Origin: an uncultured Verrucomicrobiae bacterium
Lineage (GTDB): Bacteria > Verrucomicrobiota > Verrucomicrobiia > Chthoniobacterales > JAATET01
Length of the DNA stretch: 64,000 nucleotides
Direction of reading: 5' to 3'
NCBI GenBank assembly: GCA_963719495.1
Contig: CAVRCI010000009.1
Location: forward strand, 1 to 64,000
Shown: in pieces, positions 1-35,700 of the stretch
Numbering within the stretch: position 1 is the stretch's first letter
How the letters are laid out: each line of letters starts with the position of its first letter
Position numbers and translations under genes: made by a program
Notes under the pieces: model-generated
Seen by the model: only the letters and a program-made list of their open reading frames with translations
What the model was told of the DNA's origin: nothing
Databases searched by the model: none

Positions 1-317
1 ATTTTAAGTCCGTTGCGTCTGCCATTTCGCCACGCCGACGCGGGCCCTCGATCAATCCGATCGACTCCGGGTCTTTGATACCGGCAATACCCCCGGCGTC
101 CAATCCGTCTATTGCCCAGCCGACGTCTCGCCGGTCGCATTTCTCCGAAATTTTACGGATCGATCCGGCCATCCGACCCGCCTCGCTCGATTCACCATTT
201 GGCCATTCTCTGAGCCGCGGCGGGCCGCGCAGATTCACTCCATTTCGAGAGTTTTCCGCTGCATCCATCGAAATCACCGGGCCGTAATCACCCTTGCCTT
301 CAGAGGGCAGTTTTCCG

Positions 318-1190
318 ATGTCCCACTCTCTCCTCGCGACCCAGCCGCCTCCCGATTCCGTTCCGGCACCGCCGACCGCGACCCCGCCCCGTCCGGTCAC
401 TCCGCACGCGATCATCGCCCGCGCCCTGGCCGACCTCGTCGTCCTGGCCGAAGCCGAGCCTTCGCTCGGCGATGAATTCCGCCGCCAACTCGATCGAGTT
501 TCGAAGTTGGCCAACGGCCTCGAAGATTATCTGGCAGCCAGCACCACCGAAGAATCCGGCGACCTTGCCGTCCTCGCCGACCGAACCCGCCGCGCCGATT
601 GGGACCAGCTTTTCGCCGACGGCCACACGGGCGCACACCTCGAACAGGAGATGCTCTCCGGCCACATCGAAGGCGCATTCCTCAAGACGCTCATCCGGGC
701 AACGCGGGCCACTCGCGTCCTCGAGATTGGCCTCTTCACCGGCTACTCCGCCCTCGCGATCGCCGAAGCCCTCCCCGACGACGGACGCCTTGTCGCGTGC
801 GAGATCGATCCATTCGTCGCAGGCTTCGCCCGGGAATCGTTCGACACCGCCAAGCACGGGCACAAGATCCGCGTCGATCTCGGACCCGCCGACGTGACCG
901 TCCGTGCCCTCGCCGCAGCGGGCGAGACTTTCGATTTCGTCTTCATCGACGCCAACAAGGACGGCTACCTCGGCTACCTCGACCTGCTGATCGAAGGAGC
1001 GCTGCTGGAACCTGGCGGCCTGATCTGCGTCGACAATACCCTCCTGCAGGGCCAGCCCTACCTCGAGTCGGAATCGACCCCCAACGGCCGAGCCATCGCG
1101 GCTTTCAACGCAGCCCTGGCCAGGGATTCCCGCTTCACCCAGGTCCTCCTTCCCATCCGGGATGGCGTCACCCTCATTCAGCGCGCCTAG
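318..1190 (+). CDS. mysB: SAM-dependent O-methyltransferase of MAA biosynthesis (4-deoxygadusol forming)
   Basis: EMLSGHIEG, VLEIGLFTGYSAL, FVFIDANK and VDNTL motifs of CCoAOMT-like methyltransferases; first gene of the cluster; ATG at 318 preferred over TTG at 294. Confidence 0.9.
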   Translation: MSHSLLATQPPPDSVPAPPTATPPRPVTPHAIIARALADLVVLAEAEPSLGDEFRRQLDRVSKLANGLEDYLAASTTEESGDLAVLADRTRRADWDQLFADGHTGAHLEQEMLSGHIEGAFLKTLIRATRATRVLEIGLFTGYSALAIAEALPDDGRLVACEIDPFVAGFARESFDTAKHGHKIRVDLGPADVTVRALAAAGETFDFVFIDANKDGYLGYLDLLIEGALLEPGGLICVDNTLLQGQPYLESESTPNGRAIAAFNAALARDSRFTQVLLPIRDGVTLIQRA

Positions 1191-2550
1191 GTTCTTCAAC
1201 CGGTCGACTTCGAACCCATCCTCAGTGCTAGCCATCATCAAGAGCGCTCTCACCTTTCTGCTCCTGCTGTTGGTCCTCCCGATCAACGCGGCGGTCGTCG
1301 GCGTCGCGCTACTGGCCGGGCTTTGGAAAAAACGGGGCGCCAAGCCGACTCGAACCAATCGCAAAACGATCCTCGTCAGCGGCGGCAAGATGACGAAGGC
1401 GTTGCAACTGGCCCGCTCGTTCTCAGCCGCCGGCCACCGCGTCATTTTGATCGAAGCGCACAAGTATTGGCTGGTCGGGCACCGCTACTCGAATGCCGTC
1501 GACCGCTTTCACACCGTCCCGACTCCCGGGCAGCCCGGCTACGCCGAAGCGTTGCTGGAGATTGTGAAACGTGAATCGGTGGACGTCTACGTCCCCGTCT
1601 GCAGCCCGGCGGCGAGTGTCCACGACTCCCTCGCGATCCCGACCCTCGCCGAACACTGCGAAATTCTCCACGCGCCGCCCGACCAGATCGAACTCCTCGA
1701 CGACAAGTATCAGTTCGCCAAAGCCGCGGAATCCCTCGGCCTCCTCGCACCGAAGTCGTTTCGCATCACCGATCCGGAGCAAGTGGCGAACTTCGATTTC
1801 ACCAACGAAACGCGCCCCTACATCCTCAAGAGCATTCCCTACGATTCGGTGCGGCGGCTGGACCTCACCCGCCTCCCGGGCGCGACCCGCGAGGCAACCG
1901 CCGACTTTGCCCGGTCCCTGCCGATCTCGGAAACGACGCCCTGGATCCTGCAGGAATTCATTCCTGGCAGGGAATACTGCACGCACGGCACCATGCGGGA
2001 CGGCGAACTGCGCGTTCACTGCTGCTGCGAATCGTCCGCGTTTCAGATCAACTACGAGAACGTCGTCAAACCCGCAATCGAGGATTGGGTGCGACGTTTC
2101 ACCACCGGTCTAAAGCTCACGGGGCAGGCTTCGATGGACTTCATCGAAGCCGACGACGACGGCCGCATCTACGCCATCGAGTGCAACCCCCGCACGCACT
2201 CCGCGATCACGATGTATTACGATCATCCCGATCTCGCCGACGCCTACCTGGGCTCCGAGCCCCTCACCTCACCGCTCCAGCCCCTTCCGTCGAGCCGACC
2301 CACTTATTGGATCTATCACGAAATCCCGCGAGTCGTGTCGGACCTCGTCTCGTTCCGGTCTCCGCTAAGTCGCCTCGAGACCATCGCGCGAGGCCAGGAC
2401 GCCATCTTCGACTGGCGGGATCCACTGCCTTTCCTAATGGTTCACCATTGGCAAATCCCGCTCCTCCTCCTCCGGGACATCCGCGAGCGCCGCGGCTGGA
2501 TCAAGATCGACTTCAACATCGGCAAACTCGTTCAGATCGGAGGCGACTAA
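1162..2550 (+). CDS. mysC: ATP-grasp ligase, mycosporine-glycine synthase
   Basis: N-terminal hydrophobic segment, then SGGKMTKALQLARSF, LDDKYQF, YILKSIPYDSVRRLDL, ECNPRTHSA and C-terminal IDFNIGKLV; true start may be GTG at 1225. Confidence 0.92.
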   Translation: MASPSFSAPRFFNRSTSNPSSVLAIIKSALTFLLLLLVLPINAAVVGVALLAGLWKKRGAKPTRTNRKTILVSGGKMTKALQLARSFSAAGHRVILIEAHKYWLVGHRYSNAVDRFHTVPTPGQPGYAEALLEIVKRESVDVYVPVCSPAASVHDSLAIPTLAEHCEILHAPPDQIELLDDKYQFAKAAESLGLLAPKSFRITDPEQVANFDFTNETRPYILKSIPYDSVRRLDLTRLPGATREATADFARSLPISETTPWILQEFIPGREYCTHGTMRDGELRVHCCCESSAFQINYENVVKPAIEDWVRRFTTGLKLTGQASMDFIEADDDGRIYAIECNPRTHSAITMYYDHPDLADAYLGSEPLTSPLQPLPSSRPTYWIYHEIPRVVSDLVSFRSPLSRLETIARGQDAIFDWRDPLPFLMVHHWQIPLLLLRDIRERRGWIKIDFNIGKLVQIGGD

Positions 2551-2553
2551 GCG

Positions 2554-3591
2554 ATGATCCGCATTCTCCACCTCGTCGGCTCCCCGACTTCCAAGTTTCA
2601 CGTCGACCTCTCCGTCCTTTACGCAAAGGGCTGCATCGAAGCGCTGACGGATCCGGCCCGCTACGAATTCGTCATCGCCTACGTGACGCCGGATGGTCTC
2701 TGGCGCTTTCCGCAATCACTCGATCCCGCCGGAATCGACGAGGTGCCGACCCTTAGCTTTTCCGCCGCGATTGCCGAGATCACCTCGCGCAAAATCGACC
2801 TCGCGATCCCGCAAATGTTCTGCCTCGACGGGATGACGAATTATCGAGCGATTTTCGAGCTCCTCGACATTCCTTATCTGGGAAATCGACCGATGCAAAT
2901 GGCCCTGGCCGCCGACAAATCCAAAACGAAGGCGCTCGTCGCCAGCGCCGGCGTCGCGGTCCCGCGGGGCGAACTCCTGCGAGCGGGTGATCCACCGACC
3001 ATCGGCGCGCCCGCGGTCGTCAAACCCAACACCGCCGATAACTCCGAAGGCATCAGTCTCGTCCAGACTCCCGATCAATTCCCCGAGGCGCTGGCGGCCG
3101 CATTCCGGCATTCCGACAAAGTGCTCGTCGAGGAGTTCATTCCCCTCGGCCGCGAAGTCCGCTGCGGCCTCGTGGAGCGAGGCGATCAATTAGTCTGCCT
3201 GCCACTCGAGGAATACTCCGTCGACCCGGCCACCCGCCCGATTCGAGAATCCGCCCACAAGCTCGGCCGCATCTCCGATTCCGAGCTAACCCTAACCTCC
3301 AAGGACTCGACCGAATCCTGGATCGTCGAAGCCACCGACCCAATCGTCGAATCGGTTTGGAACGCCGCCCGGGCTTCTCACCTTGCCTTGGGGTGCCGCC
3401 ACTACAGCCTATTCGACTTCCGGATCGACCCGGACGGTCGACCCTGGCTACTCGAAGCCGGCCTCTACAACTCCTTCTCTCCCCAAAGCGTCGTCGTCAC
3501 CATGATGAATGCGCAGGGCGTGACCCTAAGCGATTTTTTCGCGGAATCCGTAAGCAAAGCAGTCGACGAATTCGAAAATCGCCCGAATTAA
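2554..3591 (+). CDS. mysD: D-Ala-D-Ala ligase-like MAA ligase (adds the second amino acid)
   Basis: LHLVGS...DLS.LYA, PQMFC, EEFIPLGREVRCG, CRHYSLFDFRIDP, EAGLY.SF; directly follows mysC. Confidence 0.9.
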   Translation: MIRILHLVGSPTSKFHVDLSVLYAKGCIEALTDPARYEFVIAYVTPDGLWRFPQSLDPAGIDEVPTLSFSAAIAEITSRKIDLAIPQMFCLDGMTNYRAIFELLDIPYLGNRPMQMALAADKSKTKALVASAGVAVPRGELLRAGDPPTIGAPAVVKPNTADNSEGISLVQTPDQFPEALAAAFRHSDKVLVEEFIPLGREVRCGLVERGDQLVCLPLEEYSVDPATRPIRESAHKLGRISDSELTLTSKDSTESWIVEATDPIVESVWNAARASHLALGCRHYSLFDFRIDPDGRPWLLEAGLYNSFSPQSVVVTMMNAQGVTLSDFFAESVSKAVDEFENRPN

Positions 3592-3646
3592 AGAGCCGGT
3601 CGCCAGCGCAGCCACGTAACCAACCTCACCAACCCAATTCATCACC

Positions 3647-4300
3647 ATGAAAGCCATCCTCTTTGGATCCATTGGATCTCTCGCCGACACCTCGGAACTT
3701 CAACGCCGCGCTTTCAACGAAGCGTTTCAGAAGCATCACCTCGCTTGGAATTGGGATCAGCCGACCTACGCTAAGCTATTGGCCAAAAGCGGGGGAGAGC
3801 GTCGCATTGCCGAGTACGCGGAATCGCGCAATGAAAGCGTCGACGCCGCCGCGGTTCACGAGGCAAAGTCCGCCCTCTTCCAAGGCTACCTCACCGAGGG
3901 ATGCGCGACCGCACGGCCCGGCGTCAAAGCTGTCATCCAAGCGGCGAAAGCGGACGGCGTCCGGCTGGGCTTCGTCACGACGACAGCTCGTGACAACGTG
4001 GATGGCATCGTCCGAGCCCTCGAAGGCTCGCTCGACGCGGATGACTTCGACCTCATCCTTTCCCGCTCGGACGTTCAGCGGGCAAAGCCCGCCGCCGACG
4101 TCTACGAATTGGCGCTGACCCACCTCTCGCTCGACGCTACCGATTGCGTCGCCATCGAGGACAACGTGGGCGGCGTCGCAGCGGCCGGGGCCGCTGGCAT
4201 CCGCTGCTTCGCATTCCCGAGCGAGAACAACGCCGACCACGACTTCTCGGCTGCGACCGCCACCATCGATCACCTCGATTACGCGCGGCTCAGCCGTTAG
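3647..4300 (+). CDS. HAD-superfamily (CbbY-like) protein with atypical motif I
   Basis: KAILFGSIGSLADTSELQRRAFN, KPAADVY, AIEDN..GV; canonical DxD of motif I absent. Confidence 0.85.
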   Translation: MKAILFGSIGSLADTSELQRRAFNEAFQKHHLAWNWDQPTYAKLLAKSGGERRIAEYAESRNESVDAAAVHEAKSALFQGYLTEGCATARPGVKAVIQAAKADGVRLGFVTTTARDNVDGIVRALEGSLDADDFDLILSRSDVQRAKPAADVYELALTHLSLDATDCVAIEDNVGGVAAAGAAGIRCFAFPSENNADHDFSAATATIDHLDYARLSR

Positions 4301-4317
4301 CTCCGCCAACCCGAAAG

Positions 4318-5118
4318 ATGAAGTTTTCTCCACTCGAACCGTTCGGAGCCGAGGTTCACGGTCTCGACATCCGATCCTTGGACGACTCGACGGTCGAGGC
4401 CCTCGAGCGGGGCCTCGGCGAAAATGGTTTTCTCGTTCTGCGCGAACAAGCCATCGAGGATTCCGACTTCGTCGCCTTCCTCGAGCGCCTCGGGCCGCTT
4501 ACTTTCACGACTGGAGAGACGCCCGTCGAAGGCGCGCCGATGCTGAATCTCGTCACGAACGTCGGACGGACCAAGCCGCCACGCAGCGTCTTTCACACCG
4601 ACACCAGCTACGTCCCCGAGCCTCCGTCCTACACGGCCCTCCGCGTCGTGGTGACTCCGGAATCCGGCGGCGAGACGCTCTTCAGCGATCAATACCGCGC
4701 CTACGAGTCCCTGCCCACCTCGTTCCGGAAGGCGATTGCCGCGACCAAAGTCCGGCACGCGGTAACGGGCCTGCAACTCGACGCCGATCAGCCCAGCGAG
4801 ACGTGGCATCCGCTCGTGCGTCGTCACCCCACGTCCGGTCGTGCGGCGCTCTTTCTCTCGACCCCCGAGCGCTGCGTCGAGCTTTCGGATTCCACTCCGG
4901 AAGAGAGCGCCCGGATCATCGACTTTCTTTTCCGACACTCGATCCGCCCATCGCGGCTCTACCGCCACCAATGGCGAACCGGCGACATTCTCGTCTGGGA
5001 TAACCGCTGCACGATGCACAGCGCCGACCACTCGAACTCCGTCGGCGACCGCGTCCTCCACCGCGGACTGGTGCTCGGAGAGGCCCCGATCCCGGCGCAT
5101 TTTTCCGAAGCTCCATGA
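4318..5118 (+). CDS. TauD/TfdA-family Fe(II)/2-oxoglutarate dioxygenase
   Basis: FHTDTSY (HxD), GGETLF, HPLVRRHP, GDILVWDNRCTMH, R.LHR; ATG at 4318; ATGA overlap with the next gene. Confidence 0.9.
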   Translation: MKFSPLEPFGAEVHGLDIRSLDDSTVEALERGLGENGFLVLREQAIEDSDFVAFLERLGPLTFTTGETPVEGAPMLNLVTNVGRTKPPRSVFHTDTSYVPEPPSYTALRVVVTPESGGETLFSDQYRAYESLPTSFRKAIAATKVRHAVTGLQLDADQPSETWHPLVRRHPTSGRAALFLSTPERCVELSDSTPEESARIIDFLFRHSIRPSRLYRHQWRTGDILVWDNRCTMHSADHSNSVGDRVLHRGLVLGEAPIPAHFSEAP

Positions 5119-6848
5119 ATACCGTCACCGCGATCACCTCATTCCTCGACGCCCCACGCGCCGATACCTCCGAATCCCACGATTGCGCCGTGCGCGTCGG
5201 CGCATTTTTGTCCGATGGTCACTTCAAATCTCTGGTCCTGGCTTTGTCGGAATCCCCCGCGTTTTCCGGCGACTTGGGACGGGAATTCCGTGACGCGAAT
5301 GCGACGCCGGGCCTGTTCGCCTGCCGAAGGCTGCGGGGCGTTCTCAATCTCTCGCTCGGCAGCGCGTTCGCTTTGCTGGCGGAGCTTTTCGAAGCGTTCG
5401 AGGCCCCGGAGAACCACGCCCACGTCAAAAGCTGGCGCCGGCTCTCCGACGAGGTGCAAGGTTCCCCCGACCTCCGCACCATCAAGGTTCTGGACTTTCT
5501 CACCAAGCGTCTGGACGACGCGGCGATCAGCGACCACTACCGCCGCCTGTCGGAGCGCCTGATTCGGGAAAACCCGCACGCGATCTACCAGACGTCCAGC
5601 TACCGCGAGTCAGCCGGTGAGAGTGTCAGCTCGGACGATGGAAAAATCGTCGACGCCGTCATGAGCCAGCAGACGTTCGCCTCGTTTCGGGTCGTCGACC
5701 ATTCGCTCGAGCCCGGTCAGATCATCCTCCGAGACATCTTCCAGCCGCTCGGCCGCTGCATCTGCCTCGTCGACCAGAACGTCGAGCAGCACTACGGCCC
5801 GCGGATCGAGGCCTACTTCGCCCACCACCACATCGAACTCCACAAGCTCGTCTACCGCGCCATGGAGGTCGACAAGGGCATCGGGACGGTGGAGAAAATC
5901 CTCGGCGATTTCCGTTCGCTCGGCGTCTCCCGCAACGAGCCGCCGCTCATCGTCGGCGGCGGCGTCCTCGCGGACACGAGCGGCTTGGCCTGCGCGCTCT
6001 ACCATCGCAACACCCCCTACGTCATGCTTTCGACGTCCATCGTCTCCGGCATCGACGCGGGTCCGTCTCCCCGGACGTGCTGCGACGGATTCGGTTACAA
6101 AAATCTCCTCGGTGCCTACCACCCACCCATTCTCTCGATCACCGACCGCTACTTTTTCAAATCGCTGCGCGAGGGTTGGCTTCGCCACGGGATCGCCGAG
6201 ATCATCAAGATGGCCGTCGTCAAAAACGTGGAACTCTTCGAAGATCTGGAGGCCGCCGGGACCCGCGTCATCGACACCCGCTTCGGCACCATCGATTGCG
6301 AGCCGGGGGACGAAATTAGCGAGCTGTCGCGAAAAATTCTCGCCGGTGCGCTGCGATCCTACATCGAAGCCGAATACGAGAACGCCTACGAAACCCACCA
6401 ATGCCGCCCGCACGCCTACGGGCACACCTGGTCACCGGGGTTCGAGATTCAGGCGGGCCTTCTGCACGGCCACGCCGTCGCCATCGGCATGGGGTTCGGG
6501 GCGTTCGTGAGTCACCGCGTCGGCTGGATCACGGACGAGGCGATGACCCGAATCCTGCGCCTCATCAGCGGATTTGGCCTCAGCCTCTGGCACGACATCC
6601 TTCGCGACCGCGACGTGATGTGGCAGAGCCAGCGCAAGATCGTCCAGAAGCGCGGCCAAAATCTCGTGGCTCCGCTCCCCAGGGGCGGGATTGGCCAGTG
6701 CGGCTACCTGAACGAAATGACCGAAGACGATCTCTACGCCGCGCTCGCCGATTACGAAACAATGTGTGCGACGTTTCCAGGGGAGGGCCGCGGCATCGAA
6801 CCACTCTGCAAGGACGTTGGGCTGGAGGATCCTTCGACGGTCGGGTAG
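5115..6848 (+). CDS. mysA: Sedoheptulose 7-phosphate cyclase (demethyl-4-deoxygadusol synthase) with ~170 aa N-terminal extension
   Basis: DHQS-like fold motifs VGGGVLAD, GIDAG, GIAEIIKMA, AYGHTWSP, LLHGHAV; co-located with mysBCD. Confidence 0.88.
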   Translation: MNTVTAITSFLDAPRADTSESHDCAVRVGAFLSDGHFKSLVLALSESPAFSGDLGREFRDANATPGLFACRRLRGVLNLSLGSAFALLAELFEAFEAPENHAHVKSWRRLSDEVQGSPDLRTIKVLDFLTKRLDDAAISDHYRRLSERLIRENPHAIYQTSSYRESAGESVSSDDGKIVDAVMSQQTFASFRVVDHSLEPGQIILRDIFQPLGRCICLVDQNVEQHYGPRIEAYFAHHHIELHKLVYRAMEVDKGIGTVEKILGDFRSLGVSRNEPPLIVGGGVLADTSGLACALYHRNTPYVMLSTSIVSGIDAGPSPRTCCDGFGYKNLLGAYHPPILSITDRYFFKSLREGWLRHGIAEIIKMAVVKNVELFEDLEAAGTRVIDTRFGTIDCEPGDEISELSRKILAGALRSYIEAEYENAYETHQCRPHAYGHTWSPGFEIQAGLLHGHAVAIGMGFGAFVSHRVGWITDEAMTRILRLISGFGLSLWHDILRDRDVMWQSQRKIVQKRGQNLVAPLPRGGIGQCGYLNEMTEDDLYAALADYETMCATFPGEGRGIEPLCKDVGLEDPSTVG

Positions 6849-6911
6849 GCCCACCGCCGAAATCCGGTCGCACGCTCCCGCTCGCTCTGCTAAGAAGGTC
6901 CCCAACTCAAG

Positions 6912-8282
6912 ATGTTCGAGATCAAAGCCCGGGAAAAAATGGTGGAGCGCGCCCTGCTTGTCGGCTGCTTCGTGGATTCATCCGGCCGCGAGGAGGCCGA
7001 GGATCTGCTCGCCGAGCTCGAAGAACTCGTCCGCACCCTCGGCATCCCCGTCGTCGACCGGATGTGCGTCCACCACCGCGAGTCGCACGCCCGCTACCTG
7101 GTCGGAACCGGCAAGGCCGACGAAATCCACCGCCGCCTCGAAGCCTGCGACGGCGACGTGATTATTTTCGACAACGAGCTCACGCCCGCGCAGCAGCGGA
7201 ATTGGGAGGAGCTTTCCAAGGTCACCGTCGCGGACCGGCAGGAGATCATCCTCGATATCTTCGGAGCCCGCGCCCAGACCCGCGAGGCCCGCATCCAGGT
7301 CGATCTCGCCCGCCTGCAATACTCGCTCCCGCGACTGACCCGCGCCTGGAGTCACCTCGGTCAGCAGGGCGGCGGCATCGGCTCGAAGGGCGAAGGCGAA
7401 AGCCAGCTCGAGCAGGACAAACGCGCCATCGGCGACTCCATCGCCCGCCTCAAACGCGAGTTGAAGACCGTCCGGAGTTCCCGCGCCACCCAGCGCAAGG
7501 ACCGCAAACGCACCCCCGTGCCGAACGCCGCCATCGTCGGCTACACGAACGCCGGCAAATCCTCCCTCCTCCGCCGCCTCACCGGCGCGGAAGTCCTCGT
7601 CGAAAACAAACTCTTCGCGACCCTCGACACCACGACCCGCAAGGTCGAACTGCCCAACAACCGACCGCTCCTCCTCACGGACACGGTCGGCTTCGTTCGC
7701 AAACTCCCCCACCAGCTCGTCGAATCCTTCAACGCCACGATCGAGGAAGCGACGCTCTCCGACTTCCTCGTCCACGTCCTCGACGCCTCGCACCCGAAGG
7801 TCATGGAGTTCTACAACACGACGATGAAAGTCCTCGGCGACTTGAGTGACGAAAACCAACCGATGATCGTCGTCTTCAACAAGATGGATCGGGTGACCGA
7901 TCCCGCGACCCGTAACGTCCTGCGCCGCCATTTCCCCGAAGCCATTTTCATCTCCGTCCACACCGGCGAAGGCATCGACGAACTCACCGACCGCCTGGCT
8001 GGTCTGCTCGCGTCCGAAACGGTCGACGTCGAACTCCAGATCCCTGCCGCCCAGGGCGACCTCGTCGCCCGGCTCTACCGCGAAGGCAGTGTCCACCGGA
8101 TCGACTACGTCGGCGACACGGTCGAAATCTCGGCCACCATCTCCGAACGCGCGCTGAACTCCTACGCACCCTTCGTCCACGTCCGGGAATCCAACGAAGG
8201 CCCGGCAACGCTGCCGGCACAGGCCGCGGAGGCTGGTTCTGGCGACGGGAATCCAGCGAACGCGCCCATTTCCAGAAACTGA
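6912..8282 (+). CDS. hflX: Ribosome-splitting GTPase HflX
   Basis: ILDIFGARAQTREA, GYTNAGKS, LFATLDTT, DTVGF, NKMD. Confidence 0.95.
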   Translation: MFEIKAREKMVERALLVGCFVDSSGREEAEDLLAELEELVRTLGIPVVDRMCVHHRESHARYLVGTGKADEIHRRLEACDGDVIIFDNELTPAQQRNWEELSKVTVADRQEIILDIFGARAQTREARIQVDLARLQYSLPRLTRAWSHLGQQGGGIGSKGEGESQLEQDKRAIGDSIARLKRELKTVRSSRATQRKDRKRTPVPNAAIVGYTNAGKSSLLRRLTGAEVLVENKLFATLDTTTRKVELPNNRPLLLTDTVGFVRKLPHQLVESFNATIEEATLSDFLVHVLDASHPKVMEFYNTTMKVLGDLSDENQPMIVVFNKMDRVTDPATRNVLRRHFPEAIFISVHTGEGIDELTDRLAGLLASETVDVELQIPAAQGDLVARLYREGSVHRIDYVGDTVEISATISERALNSYAPFVHVRESNEGPATLPAQAAEAGSGDGNPANAPISRN

Positions 8283-8284
8283 GT

Positions 8285-9472
8285 TCACGCGGTCGAGCCA
8301 GGTGAGTCCAGTGCGTGTCGCAATCCGCGGACGTCCGCCTCGGAGTGGCCCGCGCTGAAGGTCACCCGCAACCTCGCCGCGCCCCGCGCCACCGTCGGAT
8401 ACCGCACCGCCGGCACCCAGAAACCCGCCGCAAACAGACGCTCGCTCGCGGCCACCGCCGCCCGCTCGTCCCCGATCATCACCGGCACGATCGCGCTCGC
8501 CGCCGCTCCATCGAAATTCCGCACGTTCGTCCACAGCCGCTCCCGCTCAACCTCCAAGTCCCCCCCGTCGAGCAAACGCACCGCCTCCCCCGCCGCCGCC
8601 GCCACGACCGGGGACGGAGCCGTCGAGAAAACAAAACTCCGCGCCCGGTTCACCAGAAAGTCCACCAAGGCCCGGCTCCCCGCCACGTAACCCCCCGCCG
8701 CCCCCAGCGCCTTCCCGAGCGTCCCCATCCGCACCTCGATGCGGTCCGCGACGCCCGCCGCGTCCGCCAACCCTCGCCCCCGCTCCCCGAAAACGCCCAC
8801 CCCGTGCGCCTCGTCGACCACCAGCCACGCCCCGAACCGATCCTTCAATTCGACGATCTCCCGCAGCGGCGCGGTGTCCCCGTCCATGCTGAACACGCTC
8901 TCCGTCAGCACCATCACCCTTGCCCCCGCCCGCTTCTCCCGCGCCCACCGCAAATGGCTTTCCAGTTTTCCCAAGTCGTTGTGGTGAAAAATCCGTAAAG
9001 TCGCCCCACTCATCCGAGCCGCGTCCACCAGACAAGCGTGGCAAAGCTTGTCCAAAATCAGCACGCCATCCGAGCCAGCCAAGGCCGTCACCACCCCCAA
9101 AGCCGTCGCGTAACCCGTCGAGAACGCCAGCGCCGCCTCCGTCCCCTTGAATCCCGCCAACCGCTCCTCCAGCACCGCGTGCGGCCGCAACGTCCCACTG
9201 ATCAACCGCGAAGCCCCCGCCCCCACCCCAAACTCATCGACCGCCGCCAAAGCCGCCTCCCGCAACCGCGCATCCGCCGCCAGTCCGAGGTAATCGTTCG
9301 ACGAAAAATTAACGAGTTCCCGCCCGCCAACCCGAACCACCCGCTCCTGCGGCGAATCCACCACCCGCAAAGTCCGCCGCAACCCCGCGGCCTCGATCTC
9401 CGCCAGCTGGGAAACCAACCAACCATCAAACCCACTCACGCCCCCACCCGCATCCCACCAATCACCATTCAC
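8285..9472 (-). CDS. bioF: 8-amino-7-oxononanoate synthase
   Basis: NFSSNDYLGL, ESVFSMDGD, DEAHG, GTLGKALG, RYPTV; start uncertain. Confidence 0.9.
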   Translation of the reverse strand: MNGDWWDAGGGVSGFDGWLVSQLAEIEAAGLRRTLRVVDSPQERVVRVGGRELVNFSSNDYLGLAADARLREAALAAVDEFGVGAGASRLISGTLRPHAVLEERLAGFKGTEAALAFSTGYATALGVVTALAGSDGVLILDKLCHACLVDAARMSGATLRIFHHNDLGKLESHLRWAREKRAGARVMVLTESVFSMDGDTAPLREIVELKDRFGAWLVVDEAHGVGVFGERGRGLADAAGVADRIEVRMGTLGKALGAAGGYVAGSRALVDFLVNRARSFVFSTAPSPVVAAAAGEAVRLLDGGDLEVERERLWTNVRNFDGAAASAIVPVMIGDERAAVAASERLFAAGFWVPAVRYPTVARGAARLRVTFSAGHSEADVRGLRHALDSPGSTA

Positions 9473-9486
9473 CAGTCACCAATCAC
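9456..9486. repeat. Heptamer tandem repeat (CACCANT)x4 at the pdxJ/bioF junction
   Basis: caccaat caccatt caccagt caccaat cac read directly. Confidence 0.6.
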
Positions 9487-10225
9487 GGGCGTCATCGCCC
9501 ACCATCGCCCTCACCATCTCCACCGTCGCCCGCTGCATCCCCACGACCGTCGCCCGCGCCACGATGGAATGCCCGATATTTAGCTCGGTCAGGCCCGCGA
9601 TGTCCCGAATGCGCGCCACGTTTGAGTAATTGATCCCATGCCCGGCGTTCACGATCAGCCCGCCCGCGAGCGCCAATTCCGTCGCCGCCCGCAACCGAGC
9701 AATCTCCGCCTCCAACATCGCCCCCTCGGCGTTCGCAAACGTCCCGGTGTGCAGCTCGATCGCCTCCGCGCCCAGCCGAATCGCCGCTTCGATTTGAGCC
9801 TGGTCTGGATCGATGAAAAGACTCACCCGCACCCCAATCCCCCGCAACCGCTTGATCGTCTCCGTCACCGCCACCTCGTGAACCACACAATCCAACCCAC
9901 CCTCCGTGGTGACCTCCTCCCGATTCTCCGGCACCAGACACGCGTCATCCGGCTTCACGCGAAGCGCGATCTCCACGATCTCCGGATCGTTCCCCATTTC
10001 AAAATTGAGTTTCGTCGTCACCGCCTCGCGAAGCCGAAAAATATCCCGATCCTGAATGTGCCGCCGGTCCGCCCGCAAATGAGCCGTGATCCCGATCGCC
10101 CCACCCCGCTCGGCGGCAAGAGCCGCCACCACCGGATCCGGCTCCGCGTTAAAAGACTCCGGCATCGCCCGATACCGAGCCTCCCGGATCGTCGCGATGT
10201 GATCGATATTAACGCCGAGCTGCAT
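9476..10225 (-). CDS. pdxJ: Pyridoxine 5'-phosphate synthase
   Basis: LGVNIDHIATIREAR, HLRADRRHI, ELHTG, NAGHG, ELNIGHSI. Confidence 0.97.
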   Translation of the reverse strand: MQLGVNIDHIATIREARYRAMPESFNAEPDPVVAALAAERGGAIGITAHLRADRRHIQDRDIFRLREAVTTKLNFEMGNDPEIVEIALRVKPDDACLVPENREEVTTEGGLDCVVHEVAVTETIKRLRGIGVRVSLFIDPDQAQIEAAIRLGAEAIELHTGTFANAEGAMLEAEIARLRAATELALAGGLIVNAGHGINYSNVARIRDIAGLTELNIGHSIVARATVVGMQRATVEMVRAMVGDDARDW

Positions 10226-10234
10226 GACTATGAA

Positions 10235-10328
10235 TTTATCCGCGGATGTCGCGGATTTCGCAGATATGAAAATTCGAATTCCTGCATCTTCGTATGATCC
10301 GCGCTCTTCGCGAAATCCGCGGTTAAAA
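10235..10328. repeat. Inverted pair of 9-mer-periodic ATCCGCG repeats
   Basis: tttatccgcggatgtcgcggatttcgcagat ... atccgcgctcttcgcgaaatccgcggttaaaa. Confidence 0.75.
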
Positions 10329-10338
10329 AGCGTTTTCC

Positions 10339-11862
10339 TCAGTGCCGGAAGTGCCGCACTCCCGTGAAAACCATCGCGACGCTCCGTTCATCCGCGGCCG
10401 CCGTCACTTCTTCGTCCCGCTTGCTGCCACCCGGCTGAATTGCCGCCGTCGCGCCGGCCTCCGCCGCCGCCACGAGTCCGTCCGAAAACGGAAAGAAGGC
10501 GTCACTGCACACCACGCTCCCCTTGAGCGACAAGCCGGCCTCGCCCGCTTTCCAGACCGCAATGCGTGACGCGTCAACCCGCGACATCTGCCCGGCACCG
10601 ATGCCCAGCGTCCGGCCCTTGCCCGCGTAGACGATCGCGTTCGACTTCACGTGCTTCACAACCTTCCAGCCGAATTCCATGGCCTCCAGTTCGTCCTTCG
10701 TCGGAGGCCGCTTGCTCACGACCTTCTGCTCCAAGCCGTCCGTCTCGGTGGAATCGTGATCCTGAACCAGCATGCCCGCCAACACCGCCCGCACGTCGCG
10801 AGCCCCGGCGTCCGGCGTCTTGAGCAGTTTCATCAGCCGCAGGTTCTTCTTCTTCTGCAGCAACGAGCGCGCGTCCGCTTCGAAGTCCGGCGCGATGATG
10901 ACCTCGCTGAAAATCTCGCCGATCGCCCGCGCCAGCGCGACGTCGACGGGGCGATTGGCGATGATGATCCCGCCAAACGGCGCCTGTTTGTCCGTCGCAA
11001 ACGCCTTCATCCACGCCTCCTTGAGGTCCGGATCGCTCGCGACGCCGCACGGATTCGTGTGCTTGAGAATGGCGACGGTCGGCTTGCTGAATTCCGCGAT
11101 CAATTGCGTCGCCGCCGTGATGTCCAGGATGTTGTTGTAGGAGAGTTCCTTGCCCTGCAGCTTCTCGAAGTGGTCGGCGAACCCGCCGTAGAGCTCCGCT
11201 TCCTGGTGCGGATTCTCGCCGTAGCGCAGCCGTTGCGACAGCGGCAGACTCACCGAATACACCGCGCTGGAAGTGCTCTCGCTCCCGAGGTAATTCGAGA
11301 TCGCCCGGTCGTAGGAGGCCGTCGTGGAGAAGGCCTTGATCGCCAGCCGCTCCCGCGTTTTCAAAGTCGTCGCACCCTCGCTTTCCCGCATCTCCTCCAG
11401 CACCCGTTCGTAGTCCGTCGGATCGGTCACCACCGTGACGGATTGAAAATTCTTCGAAGCACTGCGGATCATCGAGGGTCCGCCGATGTCGATGTTCTCG
11501 ATGGCGTCCGCGAGTGTCGCGTCCGGCTTCGCGATCGTGGCTTCGAAGGGGTAGAGATTCACCACCACCAGGTCGATCGGAGCGATGTCATTCTCCTTCG
11601 CCGTCGCGACGTGCTCGTCGTTCTCACGGAGGTAAAGCAACCCACCATGAACCTTCGGGTGCAGCGTCTTCACGCGGCCGTCCAGGATCTCCGGTGACCC
11701 GGTGAAATTGGAAATTTCGACGACGGTGATCCCGGCGTCCTGCAGGGCCTTCGCCGTCCCGCCAGTCGAGACGATTTCGACGTCGAGGGCCGCGAGTCCC
11801 TTGGCGAAGTCGACCAGTCCGGTCTTGTCGGAAACGGAAATTAACGCTCTCTGAATTTTCAT
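10339..11862 (-). CDS. purH: Bifunctional AICAR transformylase/IMP cyclohydrolase
   Basis: [49 protein letters not shown] at 11862. Confidence 0.97.
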
Positions 11863-11873
11863 AATTAAGAAGG

Positions 11874-11948
11874 GTCCGTGGATTAAGCAGAACGACACAG
11901 ATTGAATTCAGAATAAAAAATCTGCGTCCCTCCGTTTAATCTGCGGAC
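11874..11948. repeat. Degenerate inverted repeat, same family as 10235-10328
   Basis: gtccgtggattaagcagaacgacacagatt ... aatctgcgtccctccgtttaatctgcggac. Confidence 0.65.
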
Positions 11949-11953
11949 AAAAA

Positions 11954-13783
11954 TCAGGCGGCTTCAGCCGCCTCGTGGTGGTGGAACTGGATCTCGTAAA
12001 GTTTGCGGTAAAGGCCCGACTCCTCGAGCAACTGCGCGTGCGTCCCGATCTCGGCGATTCGACCCTGGTCCATGACCACGATCTGGTCGCTCTTCAAAAT
12101 GGTCGACAGCCGGTGCGCGATCGCGATGACCGTCCGCCCCTGCGCCAACCGCTCGAGCGCGGCCTGGATCATCCGCTCGCTCTCCGAGTCCAGCGCACTC
12201 GTCGCCTCGTCGAGCAGCAGGATCGGCGCATTTTTGAGCAGCGCCCGCGCGATTGCCAACCGCTGCTGCTGCCCGCCGCTGAGCAGGCTGCCCTTGTCGC
12301 CGACCACCGTGTCGTAACCGTCCGGCTGCTCCATGATGAAATCATGCGCGAAGGCCAGCTTCGCCGCCGCCTCGATCTCCGCCCGGTTCGCGTCGAGCCG
12401 ACCGTAACGGATGTTTTCGTAGACCGTGTCGTGGAAGAGAAAGCTCTCCTGAGTGACGATCCCAACGTTTTCGCGCAACGACTGCTGCTTGATCTGCCGC
12501 AGATCCATCCCGTCCAGCCGGATCGCGCCCGATTGCGGGTCGTAGAAGCGCAGCAACAAATTCAGCACCGTGCTCTTCCCCGCGCCACTCGCGCCGACCA
12601 GCGCGTAACGTTGGTGCGCCGGAATCTTCAGCGAAAGACCCGCCACCGCCGGCTTGCCCACGCCATACGTGAACCCGACGTTGTCGAATTCAATCGCGCC
12701 CTCCGACCGTTTGATCACCAGCGCGTCCGGCGCGTCCTTCACGCTCGCCGTCTGCTCCATCAGCTCGAAAATATTCGTCGCCGACGCCAGACACTTTTGC
12801 ATCAGCATCGGGATCCGGCTCAGCCGCTTGACCGGTTCATACAGCAGAAAAATACCCGCCATCAGCGCCACGAATTTCGTCGCGCTCAGCCCGCCAAAAT
12901 ACACGTAGCAAAGTGCGAGCACCACCCCGAGCGCCGACACCGCCTCGATCATCGGCTGCACGATCTCGATACTCTTGCGCACCTTCATGCTCGTCCGGCA
13001 CTGCAGGTCGCTCGAAACGTCGAACTGCCCGCTCTGATGATCCTCCCGCGCGAAGGATTTGATGATCCGGATCCCCGCGAACGACTCCTGTAGGATCACG
13101 GCCATCTGCCCGGCCTCGTTCTCCTCGGCCTTGCCCGCGGTGCGAACTTTTTTCCCGTAGATCGCCACCGGGATGATGCAGATCGGGAAGAGGAACAACG
13201 TCGTGAGGCTGAACTTCCAATCCATCCACACGAGCACGCACACGCCCGTGATCACCGCGATCGGATCCTTGAAAATATCTCCCGCGATGGAGACGAGCGC
13301 GTTCTGCGCCATCCGCGTGTCGTTGAGCACCCGCGAGATGAGCTTCCCGGACTTCGCCCGATTGAAAAAATCCAGCGACTGCGACATCAGGTGCGCGAAG
13401 AGCTTCGCCCGCATGTCGCGCAGGATCCGCAGACTCACCCACGCCATGCAGTAACTATTGAGATACGACAGCACACTCCGCGTGATCATCACGAGCGGGA
13501 TGAGCGCCACGATCCAGAGGAATTCGTCGATCTTGACCCCCGCCTCATCGCCACCGGAACTCAGCACGTCGCTCTGCGACATCCCGGGTGCCACGTTATC
13601 CAAGACGTATTTCGCGATCAGCGGCAGCAACCCGCTGATCACACCGAAGGCCATGCCGAACGCCAGCCCCATGATGAACCGGGCCTTGTAGGGCTTGAGA
13701 TAGCCCGCCAGCGTGAAATACGGCTTCCAAAGCTGGCGAACCAACTGCGGAAACGGGATCTTCTTTTTCTTCGGGTCAGCCAA
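11954..13783 (-). CDS. ABC exporter, fused TMD-NBD, MsbA-like
   Basis: N-terminal TM helices; GASGAGKS, LSGGQQQR, LLLDEATSALD, IAHRLST. Confidence 0.9.
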   Translation of the reverse strand: MADPKKKKIPFPQLVRQLWKPYFTLAGYLKPYKARFIMGLAFGMAFGVISGLLPLIAKYVLDNVAPGMSQSDVLSSGGDEAGVKIDEFLWIVALIPLVMITRSVLSYLNSYCMAWVSLRILRDMRAKLFAHLMSQSLDFFNRAKSGKLISRVLNDTRMAQNALVSIAGDIFKDPIAVITGVCVLVWMDWKFSLTTLFLFPICIIPVAIYGKKVRTAGKAEENEAGQMAVILQESFAGIRIIKSFAREDHQSGQFDVSSDLQCRTSMKVRKSIEIVQPMIEAVSALGVVLALCYVYFGGLSATKFVALMAGIFLLYEPVKRLSRIPMLMQKCLASATNIFELMEQTASVKDAPDALVIKRSEGAIEFDNVGFTYGVGKPAVAGLSLKIPAHQRYALVGASGAGKSTVLNLLLRFYDPQSGAIRLDGMDLRQIKQQSLRENVGIVTQESFLFHDTVYENIRYGRLDANRAEIEAAAKLAFAHDFIMEQPDGYDTVVGDKGSLLSGGQQQRLAIARALLKNAPILLLDEATSALDSESERMIQAALERLAQGRTVIAIAHRLSTILKSDQIVVMDQGRIAEIGTHAQLLEESGLYRKLYEIQFHHHEAAEAA

Positions 13784-14989: not shown

Positions 14990-15553
14990 TCACCGCGGCA
15001 ACTTCGCGTCCACCATCTCACAAATCACGTGAAGCAAAAATTTCTGCGCCTCCTGAATCCGAGCCGTCTCGTCCCCCGCCACCACGATCTCGAGTTCCGC
15101 CGCGCCCTTCGTGAATCCCCCCGTCCGTCCCAGCAGCGCAATGGTCGTCATCTCGTGCCGCCGAGCCTCCTCGACCGCATCCAGCAAATTCCGCGATTTC
15201 CCGCTGGTCGAAATCACCACCAACACGTCGCCCTTTTTCCCAAAAGCCTGCACCTGACGGGCGAACACGTCCTGAAACTCATAGTCGTTGCCAACCGCCG
15301 TCATCATCCCACCGTCCACCGCGAGCGCCATCGCCGGATAGCCCTTCCGGTCCTCCTTGAAGCGAACGACGAACTCCGTCGCGATGTGCGCCGCGTCCGC
15401 CGCGCTCCCGCCATTCCCGCACAGCATCAATTTGCCGCCGTTCAACAACGACCGCTCGATCAGTCCCGCCGCCTCGACAATTTTTCCCTCCAGCGCCTCG
15501 GTTGCTTGAAAGGTCTCGATCGCCGCCGCGAGTGAAGTCTTGAAATGCGTCAT
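14990..15553 (-). CDS. gmhA: Phosphoheptose (sedoheptulose 7-phosphate) isomerase
   Basis: CGNGGSAADAAHIATE, GNDY.F..VFARQ, STSG.S.N, TARIQE. Confidence 0.92.
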   Translation of the reverse strand: MTHFKTSLAAAIETFQATEALEGKIVEAAGLIERSLLNGGKLMLCGNGGSAADAAHIATEFVVRFKEDRKGYPAMALAVDGGMMTAVGNDYEFQDVFARQVQAFGKKGDVLVVISTSGKSRNLLDAVEEARRHEMTTIALLGRTGGFTKGAAELEIVVAGDETARIQEAQKFLLHVICEMVDAKLPR

Positions 15554-32719: not shown

Positions 32720-35700
32720 ATGCGCCCCCCAGCCGCCCCCCGAGCCGCAGCGGCCCTCTTCACTCTCTTCGCCCTCTTCACCCTTACCACCCTCACCCCG
32801 GCCCACGCCGACCTCACCCCCGACGAGCGACGCCAGTCCGCCCGCTACGCCGAGATCCTCCAGAGCGACCCGGCGCACGTCGTGGCGCGTCAGCGACTCT
32901 GGGCTCTCCACGCAACCGCCGGCGACACCGCCACCCTCCTCGACGACTACGCCACCCGTTCCGCGGAGTCCCTCCCCGCCGCCCTCACCCACGCCTACCT
33001 CCTCCTCGAAAGCGGTGACCCCACCAGCGCTCTCACCGCCCTCGACGCCACGGCCACCACCTTCCCCGAGGACCCCACCCCTCTCCTCGCCAAAGCCGAA
33101 ATCCTCGCCGCGCAAAGCGAAGACCCCATCCCCACCCTCGTAGCCGCTCTCGCCCTCGCGCCAGAAAACCCCGACATCGCCGACCGTCTCACCCGAGCCC
33201 GCCTCGCCGCCGGCGACCCAACCAGCCTCCTCGCCGACGCCCCCAACGACCCCGCCCTCCGCCGCGAACTCGCCGACCAGCTCCTCGCCGCCAATCGTCC
33301 CGACGAAGCCCGCCCGCACCTCGAATGGCTCGCCGCCAAAGGCAACCCCACCCAGCGCGTCGACGCCCTTCGCACCCTCTCCGACGTCGCCGAGCAGAAG
33401 GGCGACCTCCCCGCCGCCATCGAATTCGCCGACCAAGCCGCCAACCGCCTCGGCCCCACCCACTGGCTCCGCCCCGACCTCGAGACCCGCGTCACCAACC
33501 TCCGCGCCCGATCCGGCACCCTCGAAGCCCGCCGCGATCGTCTGTGGGACACCACGCTCAAATCCCCCGGCGACTGGCGGGCCTGGCGCGAAATTGCGAG
33601 AATCGAAAGCGTCCTCGGCAACCCTGCCGCGCAGGTTGCGGCTCTCGAAAGCGCCGTCGCCGCCGCTCCGAGCGACGATTCACTGCGCTACGAACTCATC
33701 CGCGCCGAAGCCGATTTCGGTGACCTCGATCTGGCCTACACCCTCGTAGGAAAGCTCATCGCCCAACGACCCAACGACCCCGAGCCCATCTTTCTTCGCG
33801 CCGACCTCGACGTCCGCGCCGGCCGCCTCGCCGCCGCCCGGTCCAGCGTCGACGCCCTCGTCGCGGCCAATCCTTCCCTCCGCCCCCGCGCCATCGCCTT
33901 CTTCGAATCCACCCGTCTCGACGAAGCCGCCACCGCCCTCCGCGCCCAGGCCGCCGCCGACGGCGATCCCGAGGCCAGTCTCGCCCTCGCCAATTCCCAC
34001 CTCGAATCCAGCGATCTCCCCGCCGCCATCGCGGCGCTCACCGCCGCCAAACTCGACGCCGACACCAACCTTCGCGCCGCCGCCCTCCTCCGCTCCCACG
34101 ACCACGTCGCCGCCACCATCCCATTCCTCGAAGCCGCCCGCCTCCAGGCCCCCGACCACCTCGAGCCCGTCCAACAACTCGCCGCCGCCCTCGTTGCCAC
34201 CGACCAGACCGAAAGCGCCGTTGCCGTCCTCGAAGCCGCCCTCGCAACCCAGCCCGACAAAGCCGCGACCCTCGACCGCCAAATTTACGATTCCCTCGCC
34301 GCCACACCCGACCAACTGACCGCGCACCTCGAAACCATCCAGTCCGATCCCGAACGCTTCGCCCGCTGGCAACTCTGGAGCGGAGACGCCGAACCTCCCG
34401 ACCCCAACGAATCCCGCCCCATCGTCCCCGACGCCGAGACCCTCGACGAACTCGCCACCGCCGCCCGCGAAGCCCCCGCCTCCGTCGAGGCCCTCACCAA
34501 CCTCGCCGCCGCCCGCCAGTCCGCCAGCGACTACTACGGCGCGCTCGAACCCTGGACCGAAGCCTTCGCCCGCGCCCCCGCCAACGACCGCACCGACCTG
34601 CTGCCCCCCATCCTCGCCGCCACCGCCCGCCTCCAACTCCCCGACCGCGGCCTCGGCTTCCTCGTCGACTACGCCCGCTCCCGCCCCGGCGAGGCCGACC
34701 GCATCACCGCCTGGGCGGACGCCGTCACCTTCGCGGAAAAAAACGCCAACCTCGATCTCCTCGAATCCGAACTCGCCACCTCCCCCGACGAATACCCGAC
34801 CGCCGTCGCCCGCGCCGCCATCCAATCCGCCCGCGGCGACGACCCAGCCGCCTTCCGCACCCTCGAATCCTCCGCCCGCCTCGCCGCCGATCCCGCCGCC
34901 GCCCGCGACCGCACCCTCGCCGCCGCCGCCCGCACCGGCGAGGACGCCGCCGTCATTCGCTCAGCCGCCCGAGTCACCGCCGAGTCCAACGCCTTCTCCG
35001 ACTGGCGAGCCGCCGCCACCGCCCTCGAAGCCGTCGGAGCCGCCGACACCGCCGGAGCCACCTGGCGCGCCATCCACCGCAAATTCAACCGCGACCCCGA
35101 CGCCCTCACTGCCGTCGCCGCCTACGCCGACCGCACTGGCGAAGCCGAAACCCGCGCCACCGCGCTCTACGCCGCCGCCGAACTCGATCCCCGCGACCCC
35201 GTCCGCCTCGCCGAAGCCGCCGCCCTCGCCGAAACCCGCGGCGACCGCGACCGAGCCATCGACTTCTACTACCAGATCCTCGCCGCCACCCACCCCCTCG
35301 AGCCCGACCCCGCCCGCTTCCCCGGCTTCGACGAAGTCTCCGCCGAAGTCACCAACGCCGCCCACTCCCTCGCCATGCGCGCCATCGGCGGACTCGCCGA
35401 CGTCGCGAGCGTGGCAACCGTCCGATCCACCGCCGACCGCTCCACCGCGGTGGCCACGGCTGCCGCCCGCCTCGCCGCCATCCGAGCCCTCGCCCACCTC
35501 TCTACCGGTGGCTCGACCCGCGAAGAATGGCTGGCCTGGTGCGCGCAAGCCACCCCCTTCGAGGCGGCGTGGGGGTTCTACAGCGCCGACGAGTTCGCCC
35601 CCGCCCACGCCGCCCTCCTCACTCTACTCGCCACCACCCCCGACCCCGCGCCCGTCGAGCGCGCCCTCATCTGGAACGCCCTCCGCCGCTCCTCCTTCGA

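Follow-up and report, generated by a model that had tools for sequence, protein, structure and literature searches.

We analysed a window of 64,000 nt at the start of contig C9 (CAVRCI010000009.1) of an uncultured bacterial genome (assembly GCA_963719495.1), whose left end carries a cluster of genes for mycosporine-like amino acids (MAA). Hereafter G000 is the source genome, G001 to G005 are five congeners, L numbers are compared loci, and C8 and C9 are contigs of G000. The MAA cluster begins 317 nt from the contig start and is composed of six intact, stop-free open reading frames (ORF), as called in the window, all on the plus strand and in the order mysB-mysC-mysD-HAD-TauD-mysA. These are mysB (318..1190), an O-methyltransferase of 290 aa; mysC (1162..2550), an ATP-grasp ligase of 462 aa as called, whose true start may lie slightly later; mysD (2554..3591), a D-Ala-D-Ala-ligase-like protein of 345 aa; a CbbY-like HAD-fold protein in which both motif-I aspartates are missing (3647..4300); a TauD/TfdA Fe(II)/2-oxoglutarate dioxygenase (4318..5118); and mysA (5115..6848), a long-form sedoheptulose 7-phosphate (SH7P) cyclase of DDGS type, 577 aa in length. 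The first two genes overlap by 29 nt; 3 nt separate mysC from mysD, 55 nt mysD from the HAD gene and 17 nt the HAD gene from TauD; TauD and mysA share an ATGA overlap. The host core gene hflX (6912..8282, plus strand; TIGR03156 above cut-off) flanks the cluster 63 nt after mysA and lies outside it. With a probability of roughly 0.7, we take this locus to be a working MAA operon of the published HAD+TauD type that was acquired horizontally and is present in a subclade of one Chthoniobacterales genus.

The six gene identities proposed in the sequence-only reading, as well as the co-orientation and tight spacing reported there, were borne out. Pfam and NCBIfam gave O-methyltransferase, ATP-grasp, Ddl-like, HAD, TauD and DHQS-like domains. 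MysB, MysC and MysD were compared with the annotated MAA cluster on a Nostoc HK-01 plasmid, which belongs with Nostoc punctiforme to the canonical mysABCD type: MysB (PF01596, E 4e-45) is 53% identical to its O-methyltransferase, MysC (PRK06849, 451 bits for a cut-off of 406) 60% identical to its ATP-grasp protein over 463 columns, and MysD 54% identical to its MysD versus 29% to the host's own ddl, a MysD-type ligase being thus distinct from the housekeeping enzyme. The host's own aroB and ddl are located elsewhere in G000, the latter on C1. A clustered SH7P cyclase, O-methyltransferase and MysC-type ATP-grasp ligase make this an MAA cluster of the mysABCD type, and the HAD and TauD/TfdA genes inside it make it one of the HAD+TauD clusters described with GATOR-GC. 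The canonical clusters differ in having a short MysA, placed first, and neither HAD nor TauD.

For MysA, the best match in both sequence (E 1.6e-76) and fold is the Anabaena DDGS Ava_3858 (PDB 5TPR; Z 44.3, versus 38.9 for EEVS). DDGS and EEVS differ at Glu254, Ala268 and Thr347, where EEVS has Leu, Asp and, at the third position, His360; the review names Glu254 and Ala268 alone as confirmed by mutagenesis (PMC10666671). MysA of G000 shares with Ava_3858 the cyclase fold and these two fingerprints, as E420 and A434, which were also found in 15/15 cluster-borne long MysA and in 60/60 long forms linked to DUF6492. Metal, NAD and phosphate residues are conserved. At its N-terminus the protein bears a helical, confidently modelled extension of about 150 residues; a separate single-sequence model had a predicted local distance difference test score (pLDDT) of 41, too low for use. 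The extension had no Pfam match and no atlas match, the whole-protein fold search being filled by the cyclase domain. We file MysA as a putative member of a DDGS-like long subfamily, not as a canonical DDGS.

A CbbY-type HAD phosphatase needs the motif I D-x-D, its nucleophile and acid/base. In CbbY, the nearest solved relative (PDB 4UAR/4UAT/4UAV; E 3e-39), this motif reads FDVDG; here it reads FGSIG, and F-G-S-I is invariant in 120/120 homologues (best 120 of 1095). Motifs II to IV are kept in the same homologues: T111-113 and K147 in 120/120, E171 in 120/120 and D172 in 117/120, so that the TTT, KP and ED motifs are conserved. Since G-S-I replaces D-x-D, the canonical phospho-aspartate mechanism is impossible. 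The protein is a probable pseudo-phosphatase; on balance it would act as a non-hydrolytic, sugar-phosphate-binding helper of the cyclase, and it may carry out an unconventional catalysis. Among 18 metagenomic HAD loci 14 were true matches. Twelve of these have mys genes as neighbours, mysA following immediately in 11 cases, and two are located at contig ends or are fragments. The TauD protein has the H93-x-D95 motif, a distal H234 (within DNRCTMH, as aligned to PDB dioxygenases) and the 2-oxoglutarate-binding R249 of its family; H93-x-D95 is found in 15/15 cluster homologues and R249 in each of the 13 whose sequence reaches this position. TauD proteins of MAA clusters are 50-72% identical to each other versus about 33% to other TauD. 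A plasmid search bearing on orthology with MysI gave just TauD of about 33% identity among the 12 of 236 records listed. Pfam assigns the protein to TauD only (PF02668, E 2.7e-56), and not to the phytanoyl-CoA dioxygenase family of MysH. Of the two accessory enzymes of the sequence-only reading, TauD retains its iron triad and the HAD protein is without catalytic aspartates. In a Phormidesmis metagenome-assembled genome (MAG), HAD residues 3-129 and TauD residues 114-258 form adjoining halves (L001:9053-9885), which suggests an internal deletion.

The genes, motifs, synteny, phylogeny and selection described in this work come from our own analysis and the steps of MysA to MysD from literature on other organisms, while we infer the product identity, the TauD step, the HAD role and the regulation. 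In characterized systems MysA and MysB convert SH7P to 4-deoxygadusol, MysC adds glycine and MysD a second amino acid (PMC10666671). Here, the long-form MysA would cyclise SH7P to demethyl-4-deoxygadusol, possibly assisted by the HAD protein, MysB would methylate it to 4-deoxygadusol, and MysC would attach glycine to yield mycosporine-glycine. The MysD omega loop carries L247/S255, as in both cluster-bearing congeners (positions mapped through the primer sequence of the paper). Two omega-loop residues are tied to MysD product preference and L-S marks the shinorine-preferring class (PMC11983340), so that MysD probably adds mostly serine, giving shinorine. TauD, in a MysI-like role, would then hydroxylate this compound and cut off one amino-acid arm, leaving palythine-serine or palythine. 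Shinorine trimmed to palythine-type MAAs is thus the most likely product, which would serve as a UV screen or antioxidant. A transketolase is encoded in G000, as is a GmhA-like SH7P isomerase (14990-15553, minus strand; scoring below curated cut-offs), which could compete for the MysA substrate; both genes are consistent with an SH7P pool in the host.

According to the GATOR-GC study (Cediel-Becerra et al. 2025, PMC12235509 / PMC11888242), HAD and TauD genes are conserved in the MAA clusters of Actinomycetota, Pseudomonadota and Bacillota, and the Pseudonocardia alni, Rhodococcus fascians, Caulobacter and Bradyrhizobium rows of Table S6 contain the same six gene families as G000. The architecture, described as non-canonical in the sequence-only reading, had therefore been published. 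A Rhodococcus HAD+TauD operon, whose expression is cited there as unpublished, gave shinorine, palythine and palythine-serine. The variant compound suggested in that reading is not supported, the likely products being known MAAs. A TauD-type MysI of Nostoc UHCC 0926 was proposed for palythine formation (Arsin 2023, PMC10510106); MysH, of the phytanoyl-CoA dioxygenase type and hence of a different family, was shown to give palythines (PMC10510106). Both are, like the TauD described here, Fe/2-oxoglutarate oxygenases in an MAA context. The claim of a new producer lineage holds in part. No MAA cluster of Verrucomicrobia or Chthoniobacter was found in the literature searched, subscription papers lying outside the search, and the 131 rows of Table S6 (two with coded names) hold no recognised Verrucomicrobiota name, the phylum of our host; Planctomycetota, another phylum of the Planctomycetes-Verrucomicrobia-Chlamydiae (PVC) group, and Armatimonadota are already listed among the phyla with MAA clusters (PMC12235509). 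The cluster thus appears to belong to a known type and its host phylum to be new, the news being mainly the host lineage and traceable origin rather than the chemistry, which is probably already known. It extends MAA clusters to Verrucomicrobiota, and as a compact six-gene operon it bears on palythine formation by TauD/MysI and on the role of a HAD protein devoid of aspartates.

The G000 genome is 4.5 Mb long, with 98.6% completeness and 2.8% contamination. rpoB and rpoC are on the same contig as the cluster, about 36-44 kb downstream. By best match rather than by a tree with named references, RpoB is nearest to Chthoniobacterales (89-90%) and then to Terrimicrobiaceae/Spartobacteria (85%), which places the host in Chthoniobacterales (Verrucomicrobiota). 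A photosynthetic reaction-centre gene was found in 0/6 genomes of the genus and photolyase in 6/6. The heterotrophic PVC host postulated from the sequence is in agreement with these results. A microbial rhodopsin gene was seen in one of the six genomes, the cluster-bearing G003 (C1:112626-113240).

The distribution of the cluster among congeners was examined next to hflX. All six genes are present in the same order, directly 5' of hflX, in two of the five congeners (G001 and G003), with 58-78% protein identity. G004 has an empty site within a long contig: the photolyase-related and HTH-cupin genes are as in G001 and are joined straight to hflX. In G002 and G005 (the latter 79% complete) different genes lie 5' of hflX and mysC was not found. 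In a seven-gene host tree G004 falls inside the carriers, (G000,(G001,G003,G004)100)100, and the cluster gene trees mostly agree with this tree. Because G004 nests within the carriers and has an empty site, the most economical scenario is that their common ancestor (of G000, G001, G003 and G004) gained the cluster once and that G004 later lost it. Crude ratios of nonsynonymous to synonymous divergence (dN/dS) are 0.16-0.30 for all six genes, and at synonymous sites the cluster genes (pS 0.50-0.68) have diverged to a similar degree as hflX (0.46-0.49). The locus thus clearly records how such clusters spread: it was gained once at a defined position before hflX, was passed on vertically under selection, and was lost precisely from one relative. 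The photolyase-related gene (PF04244) and the HTH-cupin regulator of G001 and G004 lie just 5' of the cluster site (L089:9135-10757); the corresponding stretch of G000 is C8:15803-17341. MysC was detected in 0/400 other genomes sampled across the phylum; among 400 genomes of the order it was found in G001 and G003 only, apart from one 31% match in G592, which was excluded from the count (its 4-kb locus holds no further mys gene). With mysC so rare in both samples, the cluster is a local acquisition and not a PVC trait. Three other genomes of the class (among 400) have a long cyclase without detectable mysB or mysC, these cyclases forming a separate clade, and a 28% cyclase of G052, with no mys neighbours, was set aside.

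To trace the long-form MysA we surveyed the best 80 of 239 loci. mysC/D genes were nearby in 12 of them and mysA came after mysD in 12/12, so that this gene order, noted at first as non-canonical, is the rule for clustered long MysA. The short-MysA metagenomic loci compared begin with HAD-mysA-mysB, in contrast to the terminal long cyclase of G000. Rearranged orders were seen in Granulicella, Sphingomonas, Polaromonas and Halieaceae clusters. Phormidesmis-type cyanobacterial clusters have the exact order of G000 at L016 and L077; at L010 the same order is cut at a contig end, and at L001 HAD and TauD are partial. Their hosts are phototrophic, unlike that of G000, and their long MysA are 60-63% identical to that of G000 and at the base of its clade. 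These four unannotated cyanobacterial MAG loci with HAD/TauD contrast with the GATOR-GC statement of no HAD/TauD in Cyanobacteriota (PMC12235509). We built a tree of 36 long forms, 21 of them from outside clusters and selected among 70 such rows. It unites 14 of the 15 cluster-borne MysA in a single clade (100/98), in which four cyanobacterial sequences branch first and ten heterotroph sequences are nested (100/98); the three Chthoniobacterales MysA group together (100/99) inside this nest. A tree of 93 rows gave the same nesting pattern, and the MysB, MysC and MysD trees put the three congeners together with a sister group that is not fixed. Of the trees asked for in the sequence-only reading, these two of MysA show the heterotrophs nested among cyanobacteria. 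In a FastTree run rooted on distant short forms, the heterotroph clade fell outside the cyanobacteria, so that the inferred donor direction varies with the model and the rooting, and a cyanobacterial source is no more than likely.

mysC was found in 8 of 34 cyanobacterial genomes carrying the long cyclase. In all eight, the 12-kb stretch around mysB-mysC is without mysA and the long cyclase lies elsewhere in the genome, which is why we consider the long form to be probably an in-trans cyclase of 'mysA-less' clusters. The missing cyclase of such clusters is an open question (PMC10666671), on which the present operon bears. The terminal position of mysA might result from its being appended to a mysA-less operon. 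These eight mysB-mysC(-mysD) clusters (L176-L183) have, where MysD is present, a divergent form 39-40% identical to that of G000. Pairing of the long cyclase with DUF6492 was seen at L013:9743-12505 and L174, mostly in cyanobacteria without detected mysC and also in other Verrucomicrobiota; a DUF6492 gene was not found in G000, nor was any paper on this domain found in the literature searched.

About 30 nt 5' of mysB lies a motif that resembles an extracytoplasmic function (ECF) sigma promoter, TGCATCCA-N14-CCGTAAT (260..288, plus strand). G000, G001 and G003 share the two boxes at unchanged spacing amid otherwise divergent DNA, and the motif is the sole strict match in the 4.5-Mb G000 genome; neither the fasciclin region nor the stretch ahead of photolyase was found to contain it. 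The motif is similar to the RpoE/ChrR consensus TGATCC-N16-CGTA (PMC5507510), and Halieaceae clusters (Halioglobus, Haliea) have an RpoE/ChrR-like TGATCC-N17-CGTA upstream of mysB (L063:6489, L075:532, L079:6489). G000 encodes 12 sigma-70/ECF-type matches above cut-off. The cluster is probably under a stress-type, ECF-like promoter; control by RpoE-ChrR itself was rejected, G000 being without ChrR. A sigma-70 promoter scan gave 0 sites and an Rfam scan of the window 0 matches. A TGATCC-N16-CGTG sequence precedes the PF04244 gene in G000 and is not conserved in G001.

Several points weigh against a functional operon with palythine-type products. In MysA the third fingerprint is K512 in place of threonine (K in 75/75 long forms, T in 8/8 short forms), and R320 stands where the short form has K. 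MysD has T248/S249 instead of A/A and N306 instead of C, and its product rule was derived from cyanobacterial enzymes. TauD activity on MAAs is unpublished or proposed only; TauD of G003 is frameshifted in its assembly which, with G004 lacking the cluster, makes the latter dispensable. The long cyclase occurs most often in a two-gene unit, with DUF6492 3' of it (60/82 loci, none among the 12 clustered ones); mysC was not found in 26 of the 34 cyanobacterial genomes above, so that the product of the cyclase in this setting is uncertain. Finally, no ChrR was found in G000.

An operon producing an undescribed MAA, whether owing to its long MysA, to the changed loop of MysD or to a non-canonical HAD activity such as Ser-based group transfer, is unlikely but retains some weight. 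It draws on the long-form-specific K512, R320 and SPR motif, on the occurrence of T248/S249 in all three Chthoniobacterales MysD and on the strong conservation of the HAD protein (invariant GSI, SE and EDN). However, both mutagenesis-validated DDGS residues are present in MysA, the L/S pattern of MysD is that of a known class, and the products cited for the Rhodococcus operon, which has these accessory genes too, are known MAAs. An equally doubtful reading would make long-MysA clusters a distinct mobile sub-lineage. It would have been born in cyanobacteria, where a mysBCD-HAD-TauD operon without mysA acquired at its end a cyclase normally paired with DUF6492, and would then have reached Verrucomicrobiota, Acidobacteriota and Pseudomonadota; the helical domain and aspartate-less HAD would together handle the substrate as a module or catalyse a non-canonical reaction, and the Chthoniobacterales MysD loop variant would lead to an undescribed MAA. 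Less probable still is a pathway ending at a disubstituted MAA (shinorine, porphyra-334 or mycosporine-2-glycine), TauD and HAD being passengers or involved in turnover: TauD is missing from the Halieaceae loci, L066, L118 and L124 and is disrupted in G003, but here its gene is tied to mysA by the ATGA overlap, purifying selection acts on it, and the cluster TauD proteins form a group of their own. A reading of the cluster as an artefact of assembly or binning, or as a relic in decay, which its position at a contig start beside an att-like repeat and mobile DNA and the want of a bridging public contig among the matches listed could suggest, is very improbable and already largely refuted by independent synteny, given the six genes beside hflX in two further genomes, the empty site of G004, the cluster gene trees that mostly match the host tree and a third-position GC content of 0.74-0.82 versus 0.78-0.86 in core genes.

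A chimera at the mysA-hflX junction, the risk attached to the sequence-only reading, is likewise unlikely because of this synteny, the empty site and the dN/dS values. As to read continuity, public runs gave only short pieces over window positions 1-12000, and no bridge over the junction was present among the 24 pieces listed, a further 444 lying outside the list. Identical pieces came from one run labelled sediment metagenome (one study, which may be the source) and are not independent support; no RNA data covering the same interval were present among the matches listed.

The first 37 nt of the contig (1..37) are an att-like repeat, a reversed copy of the 5' half of tRNA-Leu(TAA) that belongs to a neighbouring integrative element outside the MAA cluster. 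It is 100% identical to C8:9938-9902, beside an integrase-like gene, and has 4 mismatches to the tRNA-Leu at C8:10070-10152. The low-GC region C8:1-13000 (L132) contains this tRNA-Leu, the second repeat copy, the integrase-like gene, an IS4 transposase, an AAA ATPase and a HipA-like gene; synteny suggests that C8 and C9 are adjacent. Upstream of the G003 cluster there are likewise an att-like tRNA-Leu repeat and an integrase, the latter 91% identical to that of C8. A mobile element was considered as vehicle of the cluster and rejected: the integrase-like gene and att-like repeat are read as a later insertion, since the integrase DNA is 91% identical versus about 72% for the cluster and since G001 is without integrase and repeat. 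Further downstream in the window, a TPR-rich ORF of 1903 aa lies in a high-GC stretch (32720-38431, plus strand) and has no family above cut-off. Positions 7000-39000 display a very strong negative GC skew (to -0.48) together with a positive AT skew over about 30 kb.

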